A stretch of DNA of 64,000 bases from a virus (Duplodnaviria; Heunggongvirae; Uroviricota; Caudoviricetes): the IMG/VR virus record IMGVR_UViG_2724679293_000007, positions 1 to 64,000 of that record. The stretch is one strand, 5' to 3'. Shown piece after piece: positions 56,653 through 58,910 of this stretch. Both the position numbers and the translations under genes were made by a program. Under the pieces are notes generated by a model, which saw only the letters and a list, made by a program, of their open reading frames with translations, did no database searches and had not been told where the DNA came from. The number at the start of each line of letters is the position of its first letter. Within the stretch, counting starts at the first letter, position 1.

Positions 56653-56805
56653 TGAAACCTCGTAGAATCTGGTGTGTTACCCGATTCTACGAGTTGTCAT
56701 TTGTTACCGGTCAGTCTACACATTTCAGATGCTGCGTTAAAAAACCCAAGTACTTCAAGTAGCACATCGTCATCAACACCCAGCCCCAAGATACGGTGAT
56801 AAAAT

Positions 56806-57873
56806 TCAAGCCTTAAGAGGCTTTGTGTATGTTCGTGTAATCCATCCAGTAATAAACTCGTCCCCTGATTTAACCTGCACGAAAAGCCATTGGCGATCTT
56901 TTTTATCTAAAACAGCCACTATAGTATTTTTGCCAATGCATTCAATCACCTCACTATTTATAGAAGGACTGACGTGTAATCTTACGTTCTCACCAGTTAT
57001 AAAACGAAAACCATTGAGATCTTCCCAACTAATTTCTTTGTTTTCTTTAATTAATTGTTGTTTTGATATTGGTTTATCCTCAAACAGAGATATAAAATAT
57101 GATTCTGCCTTGTGTATTCCCAGCAAGGTTTTCTCTTTTCCGTAATCAATAAAAGCACCAAACACAACTTGAGAAAATATAACCATTAGTAACCATTGCA
57201 GTGGATAAGGAAGCTCTTTAAATGAATCAACAAACTTTGAGCTAGGTTTATTTAATCCTTTATTTTGAACATTACTTTTGGTGTGTGATGTTTCAGTAGC
57301 ACCTTCAGCATAAGCCTGCGCAATAGATGAAATCCCCTGCTCTATTATTTGATGTAATGAAGCATTTCTTGTTCTAGCATAGTGATCTAGTACTTTCTTT
57401 ATGTCTTGGCTTACATCTGTTTTATAACTTGCACTTTGTTGTAATTCTTTAAGTATCGCTTGCATGTTATTTAAACCAGCTTGCTTATTAAGCACCTCAA
57501 GCTGTTTTCGTAATGGCATAGCTATTTCGGCCTGTTTCCTTAGCATTTGAATATATCTATTTGCGTCATGAGGGAAAAGAGCCTGAGTCTGTTTCTGTAA
57601 AATCGCGATATGTTCACGATACTTGCTGCCTATTCCAGCCAAGTTCGGCATACTAGCCAATTGTTTTCGAAGAGAGTTACTAATTACAGCTTGTCTATTC
57701 AATCTTGTCATATTTTGAAAAGAATGTTTTTCTATTCCTAATTGTTTTTGCAAGATCGCTACGTGATCTTTGTATGATGGAATGAGCACTGACTGTTTAT
57801 ACAGTAACTTCAACTCATTAGAATTAGTAATTTTTGTCATATTATTCCATTTATATAATAGAATATTACGCAA
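56806..57873 (-). CDS. membrane-anchored protein with internal repeats and C-terminal SH3b-like domain (355 aa), AT-rich
   Basis: Repeated HxAILQKQ / LRKQL segments, one TM helix (LQWLLMVIFSQVVFGAFIDY), C-terminal pattern like bacterial SH3 (GFRFITGENVRLHVSPS..WLFVQVKSGDEFITGWITRTY). Confidence 0.55.
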   Translation of the reverse strand: MRNILLYKWNNMTKITNSNELKLLYKQSVLIPSYKDHVAILQKQLGIEKHSFQNMTRLNRQAVISNSLRKQLASMPNLAGIGSKYREHIAILQKQTQALFPHDANRYIQMLRKQAEIAMPLRKQLEVLNKQAGLNNMQAILKELQQSASYKTDVSQDIKKVLDHYARTRNASLHQIIEQGISSIAQAYAEGATETSHTKSNVQNKGLNKPSSKFVDSFKELPYPLQWLLMVIFSQVVFGAFIDYGKEKTLLGIHKAESYFISLFEDKPISKQQLIKENKEISWEDLNGFRFITGENVRLHVSPSINSEVIECIGKNTIVAVLDKKDRQWLFVQVKSGDEFITGWITRTYTKPLKA

Positions 57874-57914
57874 CCAATGTTTTATTGATTGCGTTAATCT
57901 TTAACACAGAAAGA

Positions 57915-58391
57915 TCATTTGCCTCGTTTAATACATCCATCCATTTTGGCTTGTTGATACAACTTACTTAGCCCAGAAAGAGGGAATGTAGCAATTTTTT
58001 CATTATCAACATAAGCATCAATCATATTAGCATTTGAATCTGCTGCATCTTGCCAAAAGGCATACCACCAAGAATCTCCAACCATTGATCCAAGATTGCT
58101 AAAAGGATATTGCTCACCATCTATAGTTAATACTATTTTATTCTTGTCAGCATTATACTCTTTTTTATTATTCGACGAACTTAGCAACAAGCCTAAACTA
58201 CCTGCACTATCTGGTGAACCATACATGAATCCCATATCACATAAAAAACTTATCTTATCACCATTATGATTATGGATTGTATATTCTCTCCCCCCTCTCT
58301 CTTCAATTACATTCCATTGTAGAGGATCAATTTTTGCAAATGTTCCTGCTGAAACTAACGATACAAATAATAAAAACCATCTCATATTCAT
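57915..58391 (-). CDS. secreted/periplasmic protein with signal peptide (158 aa), AT-rich
   Basis: N-terminus MNMRWFLLFVSLVSAGTFA then charged mature region; two Cys. Confidence 0.55.
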   Translation of the reverse strand: MNMRWFLLFVSLVSAGTFAKIDPLQWNVIEERGGREYTIHNHNGDKISFLCDMGFMYGSPDSAGSLGLLLSSSNNKKEYNADKNKIVLTIDGEQYPFSNLGSMVGDSWWYAFWQDAADSNANMIDAYVDNEKIATFPLSGLSKLYQQAKMDGCIKRGK

Positions 58392-58413
58392 TCTTTTCGC
58401 TTCTTATCTGTAA

Positions 58414-58764
58414 TTATTCTGCAATATCATTTGCCCATTGCACGGCAGCAAAATGAGTACCCAAACCACTCAGGAAAGCAATTACCCCCAAAACAATACT
58501 TGCTGCTGTTGATTCAAACAAAGTACCAATACTATAGCCAATAGCTCCCCATACTAAGCTAAATACAATCATCAATGGTATTGCCAGAAATTTTATTCTT
58601 AAACTAAAAATCAGTCCAAGAAAAGAACCGCCAAAGGCCCACCATGATTTAGACATTAAACCTATCAGTATTGACAGAATTCCTATTTCAATAAAGAGAA
58701 TATTAGATTGCTCTTCATTGAATTTCGCATTTGTTACACCTTTACGAACATGTTCAGATGACAT
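58414..58764 (-). CDS. integral membrane protein (116 aa, about 3 TM helices), AT-rich
   Basis: Three hydrophobic segments; first gene of the three-gene minus-strand operon. Confidence 0.5.
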   Translation of the reverse strand: MSSEHVRKGVTNAKFNEEQSNILFIEIGILSILIGLMSKSWWAFGGSFLGLIFSLRIKFLAIPLMIVFSLVWGAIGYSIGTLFESTAASIVLGVIAFLSGLGTHFAAVQWANDIAE

Positions 58765-58910
58765 GATTAACTATCTCCTGCCACAGATAAAACGCCTTAA
58801 AATAACATTTTGTAGCATAAAGTTTCACCATGCAATGGTCAAAATCTTTGACCCATATCAATTAAACTCATACATTTTAGTTACCAGGGAAATAATTTAC
58901 ATGGTTGCAA

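Follow-up and report, generated by a model that had tools for sequence, protein, structure and literature searches.

In the course of analyzing a 64,000-nt stretch of a P1-like phage-plasmid (positions 1 to 64,000 of IMG/VR record IMGVR_UViG_2724679293_000007; hereafter the window, to which all positions refer unless stated otherwise), we characterized a low-GC cassette of three minus-strand genes lying between pmgC and the immI region. In order of transcription, these encode a 116-aa multi-pass membrane protein (58414 to 58764), a secreted 158-aa protein of the YfjT family (57915 to 58391), and a 344-aa protein that combines helical repeats, a single hydrophobic helix, and a juxtamembrane linker with a C-terminal SH3b domain (56806 to 57840). 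The cassette would be the local allele of a recombination hot spot in P1-like phage-plasmids, namely, the sim slot between LPsit/pmgC and the c4-icd-ant operon of immI, and its construction from separable envelope modules is very probable. The wider statement, that it is a mosaic hot-spot stack of prophage accessory envelope genes acting against incoming phage, draws on analogy with characterized systems, and we offer it tentatively, as a reading that falls somewhat short of probable. The gene arrangement agrees with a preliminary description of this DNA, in that the predicted open reading frames (ORFs) are co-directional and show the hydrophobic segments, signal-like N terminus, repeats, helix, and SH3 domain that it had listed.

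Nucleotide comparison with P1 (AF234172) by blastn showed that homology stops at position 56705 (97.7% identity) and picks up again at 59289 (95%), with the flanks corresponding to P1 pmgC and icd/ant at 95 to 98% identity. The differing segment (56706 to 59288) exceeds the three genes and hence takes in the operator and c4 region too: it substitutes for P1 simCBA plus Oc4 plus c4, since its P1 counterpart carries simC, simB, simA, the C1 operator Oc4, and the c4 antisense RNA. Its edges, placed by blastn against P1, P7, and six other alleles and by the GC profile, are recurrent junctions (J1 at ~56705 and J3 at ~59289). The GC content is 0.30 to 0.38 over ~56800 to 59000 versus 0.45 to 0.50 on either flank (~0.33 for the segment versus 0.47), bearing out the earlier remark that the genes are lower in GC than the P1-like backbone. 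The earlier placement of the P1 sim genes at this site likewise proved correct, as the alignment puts simC, simB, and simA in the same slot, between pmgC/LPsit and the C1-controlled c4-icd-ant operon. This slot is in print as the low-GC "highly variable region 4" of P1-like phage-plasmids (PMC9603915), and the sim genes of P1 are nonessential, in contrast to the essential genes pmgC, tub, pmgB, and sit (PMC10695390).

To survey the occupants of the slot, we counted its genes in PLSDB by tblastn, taking plasmids with PmgC at ≥95% identity as the backbone set (~506 plasmids). SimC is borne by ~140 plasmids, Upf50.0 of phage P7 by ~168, and a YfjT-like protein by ~182, and the three classes jointly account for nearly the whole of the backbone set. 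The YfjT class is the commonest slot occupant, found in about one-third of P1-like plasmids, and is uncharacterized. The SH3 protein was recovered from 64 plasmids and the membrane protein from ~51, and the exact three-gene cassette is present in 27 at ≥98% identity. An all-against-all comparison of slot proteins further revealed that, over 50 residues, P1 SimA (52 aa) shares 94% identity with the N terminus of a secreted 165- to 215-aa protein. The gene for this longer protein, annotated as "simA domain protein" in other P1-like elements, lies ahead of the YfjT-like gene in several alleles (locus-extract positions 3489 to 3647 for SimA in P1 AF234172 and 2901 to 3419 and 1802 to 2449 for the longer relatives in two other P1-like elements). 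Because of this near-identity to the N terminus of a longer, intact secreted protein, P1 simA is a remnant. In every allele, all of the slot proteins (SimA, SimB, and SimC; Upf50.0 and Upf50.5; the long SimA relatives; the YfjT variants; the membrane protein; and the SH3 protein) have a signal peptide, a lipobox, or transmembrane (TM) segments.

The three genes of the cassette are found apart from each other. In the allele of NZ_CP023961, the membrane and YfjT-like genes are kept at ~95% identity and an opposite-strand DUF4760 gene takes the place of the SH3 gene; in other plasmids, the SH3 gene is accompanied by another YfjT variant, with 28% identity, and by another first gene. In phage Ro157c2YLVW, Cronobacter phage JK004, and a metagenomic P1-like contig, a YfjT-like gene immediately precedes pmgC and no SH3 gene is present. 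A Yersinia plasmid and more distant P1-related elements of Citrobacter and Salmonella carry solitary homologs of the SH3 gene, each with an orientation of its own. The membrane protein has homologs without either partner in Vibrio, on a metagenome chromosome contig, beside a DUF4431 gene, and on a plasmid of the Gram-positive thermophile Anoxybacillus (NZ_CP064061.1; 45% identity). Contexts of YfjT homologs on short metagenome contigs were uninformative. The DUF4760 protein of NZ_CP023961.1 (297 aa; opposite strand; locus-extract positions 1550 to 2443) had no match in PADLOC.

At the DNA level, comparison of the alleles showed three recurrent junctions, at ~56705, 57785 to 57921 (J2), and ~59289. 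The left half of the cassette, with the SH3 gene, is common to the window and one allele lineage, and the right half, with the YfjT-like gene, the membrane protein gene, the operator, and the C4 RNA, is common to the window and another. A minus-strand hairpin between the YfjT-like stop and the SH3 start (57868 to 57894) coincides with J2. The allele is mosaic, being assembled from two or more exchangeable modules: the right half comprises the membrane protein, the YfjT-like protein, the operator, and the C4 type, and the left half consists of the SH3b protein. As judged from sequence comparison, the three genes are independently recombining, separately shuffled modules and not one system. Thus, the suggestion of an envelope-targeted module stands insofar as all three products are predicted envelope proteins and falls insofar as a single module was meant.

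The 116-aa membrane protein (minus strand; PHROG 15014, function unknown) has three or four strongly hydrophobic segments. Its family is characterized by an invariant N-terminal motif, VRKGxTNAKFNEE, that is predicted to be cytoplasmic, followed by TM helices rich in glycine zippers; a Pfam scan with the family at E ≤ 1 returned only noise.

The 158-aa protein (minus strand; PHROG 3429) has a signal-like N-terminal h-region ending in AGTFA/K, consistent with the predicted signal peptide, and two conserved cysteines. Precomputed Pfam assignments place it in PF27224, and it shares 28% identity with YfjT, encoded by the CP4-57 element of Escherichia coli K-12 (pairwise BLASTP E = 4 × 10−11). An exhaustive HMMER search of 1.84 billion representatives recovered only 21 relatives. 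YfjT relatives are also present in virulent jumbo phages of Serratia and Pectobacterium. In the family alignment the Cys51-Cys153 pair and Trp109 are conserved. The AlphaFold2 model of the protein is confident (pLDDT 87) and found no convincing match among solved folds. A reading of the protein as an inhibitor of lysozymes or transglycosylases (Ivy, MliC/PliC, or PliG) was ruled out by fold comparison, and a literature search on yfjT, yfjS, and ypjK did not turn up a function for YfjT. In all cases the YfjT-like genes immediately precede pmgC-tub-pmgB-sit and share their direction, an arrangement that persists in distant P1-like phages that lack immI on the other flank.

The start of the third gene (minus strand; PHROG 7086) depends on the annotation: the mechanical ORF runs from a TTG (56806 to 57873; 355 aa), and RefSeq starts the gene at an ATG at 57840 in an identical plasmid (344 aa). 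The protein contains a two-copy repeat of ~51 aa (residues 19 to 70 and 70 to 122), one hydrophobic helix (213 to 234), no signal peptide, and a C-terminal SH3_3 domain (PF08239), which scored 26 bits with the full-length sequence and 28.4 bits with the isolated C terminus (cutoff, 27 bits) and was matched by all 13 of the 13 family representatives (best E = 1 × 10−10). A match to a PHROG amidase is weak (E = 0.008). The family comprises 48 clusters from Escherichia, Citrobacter, Salmonella, Pseudocitrobacter, and Yersinia, mostly on contigs of 90 to 99 kb, and the gene occurs in no record of the deposited phage collection. The family alignment has two distinct zones: the C-terminal 110 residues (linker plus SH3b) are almost invariant, and the N-terminal part is hypervariable, its short helical repeats being diverse in both sequence and number, so that total lengths range from 325 to 481 aa. 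The window protein is without ~50 N-terminal residues found in alleles of 389 to 394 aa. Between alleles, dS in this gene is 0.5 to 0.7 versus ~0.12 in pmgC, and dN/dS is 0.38 to 0.54 in the repeats and 0.17 to 0.42 in the C-terminal module versus ~0.06 in pmgC. With dS so far above that of pmgC, these estimates indicate that the SH3 alleles are old and moved into a young backbone, with constraint weaker than that on structural genes and no net positive selection.

On the immI side of the cassette lies a C1 operator-like 17-mer, GTTGCTCTAATTATTTT (58911 to 58927, plus strand), at the position of P1 Oc4 and P7 Op(c4). It agrees with the consensus for C1 operators at 14 of 17 positions, and nine such sites occur in the window versus 0.33 expected, so that the operator noted earlier is upheld; the accompanying proposal that it ties cassette expression to lysogeny is not. 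The site overlaps a plus-strand promoter-like site and sits with the divergent c4-icd-ant promoter, as annotated in P1 and P7. The best sigma-70-like promoter candidate for the cassette (58842 to 58814, minus strand; TTGACC-17-TATGCT; a consensus match only) is ~70 bp away without overlap. C1 control of the cassette is therefore not indicated. A perfect palindrome, GGTCAAAgatTTTGACC (58837 to 58853), lies between the cassette and immI, where two promoter-like sites diverge; it overlaps the −35-like hexamer of each and may be bound by some unknown regulator. Farther along on the plus strand are an isrK-like RNA upstream of C4 (58997 to 59075; RF01394, 58.5 bits with a cutoff of 50) and the C4 antisense RNA of immI (59120 to 59207; RF01695, 76.7 bits). 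The C4/immI leader is of neither the P1 nor the P7 type, its nearest deposited relative being phage D6 (88%), and this C4 type is inherited jointly with the membrane and YfjT-like half of the cassette. RefSeq annotates a 39-aa "ash family protein" coding sequence at 59124 to 59243 (plus strand) in identical plasmids; this call coincides almost completely with the C4 gene and is probably spurious.

At the other boundary, the hairpin that had been placed at about 56658 to 56690 and taken to separate the cassette from pmgC is real (minus strand, 56653 to 56699, with arms at 56653 to 56673 and 56679 to 56699; ΔG of −22 kcal/mol; z = −5.7). It lies, however, outside the cassette in sequence conserved with P1 and P7, and we reinterpret the supposed cassette terminator as a backbone element at LPsit. 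The 5′ arm of the hairpin overlaps the −10 element (56684 to 56689) and −22 box (56694 to 56702) of the annotated P1 late promoter LPsit, and its 3′ arm pairs with the Shine-Dalgarno sequence of pmgC. We infer that it forms only in read-through RNA from the slot and not in late LPsit RNA, in which case it might insulate the tail genes from slot transcription in lysogens. Elsewhere in the window, a second low-GC stretch with strongly negative GC skew at the right end (63100 to 64000; GC, 0.31 to 0.36) may be another variable cargo region.

What might these proteins do? Their position, export, allelic diversity, and modular exchange and the dispensability of the slot fit prophage accessory genes acting at the envelope. 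Sim, the sole characterized occupant of the slot, reportedly excludes superinfecting P1. This precedent, together with the positional precedents of P22 sieA and HK97 gp15, leads us to favor exclusion at the level of the envelope. Like Sim in P1, the cassette would comprise accessory prophage genes that lytic growth does not require and that act against incoming phage at the envelope, with the block falling at a periplasmic or inner-membrane step, either penetration by the tail tube or delivery of the DNA. The SH3b protein would be anchored in the inner membrane, its conserved SH3b domain holding peptidoglycan and its variable helical repeats forming the specificity-bearing part, and the YfjT-like protein would serve as a soluble periplasmic factor. 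A bolder version of this proposal, which we consider doubtful, is that YfjT-class alleles constitute new families of envelope-level entry blockers, that the SH3b protein is a single-gene exclusion factor whose invariant peptidoglycan-binding end fixes it to the inner membrane and whose hypervariable repeats set which phages are stopped, and that the linked C4 causes exclusion specificity and immI type to be coinherited.

Several results weigh against the exclusion proposal. None of the searches of PADLOC, NCBIfam, Pfam, PHROGs, and PDB supplied a function: NCBIfam matched none of the three proteins, their PHROG families are all of unknown function, and PDB profile searches with the YfjT family and with the SH3 C terminus gave nothing under an E of 0.1. 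PADLOC-DB 2.0 likewise produced no hits at E ≤ 1, a blank that says little about exclusion proteins because the library misses SimC too. In agreement with the earlier impression that nothing in the cassette resembles Sim, BLASTP and profile searches against the SimA, SimB, and SimC products were negative (for SimB and SimC, no BLASTP hit at E ≤ 0.01 and family profile scores of ≤0 bits), and no similarity was found to P22 SieA and SieB or HK97 gp15 (BLASTP and profile bit scores of ≤3). A literature search on the slot proteins, DUF5384/Upf50, defense functions of the P1 hot spot, and SH3 domains with superinfection exclusion yielded nothing functional. The occurrence of the membrane protein in ordinary chromosomal settings and on a Gram-positive plasmid means that a role in phage entry into Gram-negative cells is not required. 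For the SH3 protein, the charges flanking the helix are ambiguous (K+R of 1.6 on the N side versus 2.5 on the C side), slightly favoring an inward C terminus by the positive-inside rule, and the full-length AlphaFold2 model, built on a 37-sequence alignment, is poor (pLDDT 42.7) and unusable for a fold search. Finally, promoter-like matches are no commoner than in shuffled sequence (7 versus 9.4), which leaves the cassette promoter call as a consensus match.

The evidence weighs most strongly against two alternatives, namely, a single obligate three-component envelope system and decaying cargo. The former, in which the membrane, periplasmic, and SH3b proteins would cooperate, would account for the close spacing and common direction of the genes and for the recurrence of the exact trio in 27 plasmids. 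The overlap of the YfjT-like stop with the SH3 start in other alleles suggests coupling of those two genes, and K-12 yfjT, too, comes after genes for a small membrane protein and a lipoprotein. Yet every gene of the trio occurs without the other two, a recombination junction and a hairpin separate the YfjT-like and SH3 genes here, and the K-12 partners YpjK and YfjS are unrelated to those in the window, so that we regard such a system as quite improbable. That the genes are cargo without current function is the least credible of the alternatives. P1 simA is itself the remnant of a longer gene, and the SH3 gene of the window, the start codon of which is uncertain, is shorter at its N terminus than other alleles; however, each of the three ORFs is intact and recurs, unchanged or almost so, in dozens of plasmids and hundreds of database members, dN/dS is well under 1 throughout, and invariant motifs and a confident fold are retained.

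Two further alternatives would give the genes a function other than exclusion. One is lysogenic conversion unrelated to phage, whether in adhesion or host interaction, in tolerance of envelope stress, or in immunity to colicins or contact-dependent toxins. A match to IalB is weak, the biochemical role of IalB is itself unclear, the YfjT relatives in virulent jumbo phages argue for a phage-centered role, and the one characterized slot occupant targets phage; on balance, we hold this to be unlikely. The other is that the genes assist the lytic cycle of the phage itself as accessory factors, working with the adjacent tail and injection genes to modulate the Sit transglycosylase, to protect against lysis from without, or to time lysis. 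The constant position of YfjT-like genes ahead of pmgC-tub-pmgB-sit and the same jumbo-phage relatives would be in keeping with this, as would the SH3b domain, which is typical of the cell wall-binding modules of endolysins, and the weak amidase match. However, LPsit lies downstream of the cassette, leaving it outside the late tail transcript that the P1 and P7 annotations define; unrelated genes fill the slot in about two-thirds of P1-like plasmids; sim is dispensable; and exported proteins are unlikely as virion parts. A lytic role therefore appears less likely still than lysogenic conversion, and exclusion at the envelope remains the reading that we prefer.

P1-like phage-plasmids are widespread in E. 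coli from clinical and animal sources and carry resistance genes, and the determinants of their coexistence and displacement are poorly known. What is new here is the recognition of three main allele classes in the sim slot, with the YfjT class the largest, and of P1 simA as a relic of the YfjT class. Should the proteins indeed block phage entry, the few exclusion mechanisms known to act at the envelope would be joined by new protein families, and yfjT would gain a first function, with relevance to P1-based transduction and to phage delivery tools in wild strains.

Among known systems, P22 SieA resembles the proteins of the window in being a small prophage inner-membrane protein encoded beside injection/tail genes, and its gene, located between the ejection protein genes and immI, also adjoins immI; the HK97 gp15 moron is located just upstream of the tape-measure gene. 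A further likeness is the existence of several highly divergent sequence types, those of P22 SieA being <30% identical to each other (PMC10883804). Neither SieA nor gp15 has detectable homology to the products of the cassette, which adds periplasmic and SH3b proteins, and exclusion by the window genes is proposed by analogy. The ypjK-yfjS-yfjT cluster of CP4-57 in K-12 supplies a YfjT homolog with shared conserved Cys and Trp residues that, as in the window, is preceded by small envelope proteins within a mobile element; its partners YpjK and YfjS bear no relation to the membrane and SH3 proteins of the window.

The P7/SJ46/RCS47 allele, with its Upf50.5 lipoprotein and Upf50.0 DUF5384 protein, is an alternative occupant of the slot and likewise encodes exported proteins throughout. 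Its proteins are unrelated to those of the window, and only on the Upf50.5 side is there a weak TraT-like match (P7 locus extract 1777 to 2298; E = 7 × 10−5; 23 bits, under the cutoff of 31), TraT being the surface-exclusion and complement-resistance lipoprotein of the F plasmid. The P1 sim locus (simA-simB-simC) differs from the window in gene number and protein architectures, SimC being a 264-aa signal-peptide protein, and the window allele is without the SimA-related first gene that other YfjT-class alleles keep. The two nevertheless have in common the slot itself, the orientation of the genes, low GC content, exported products, and dispensability.

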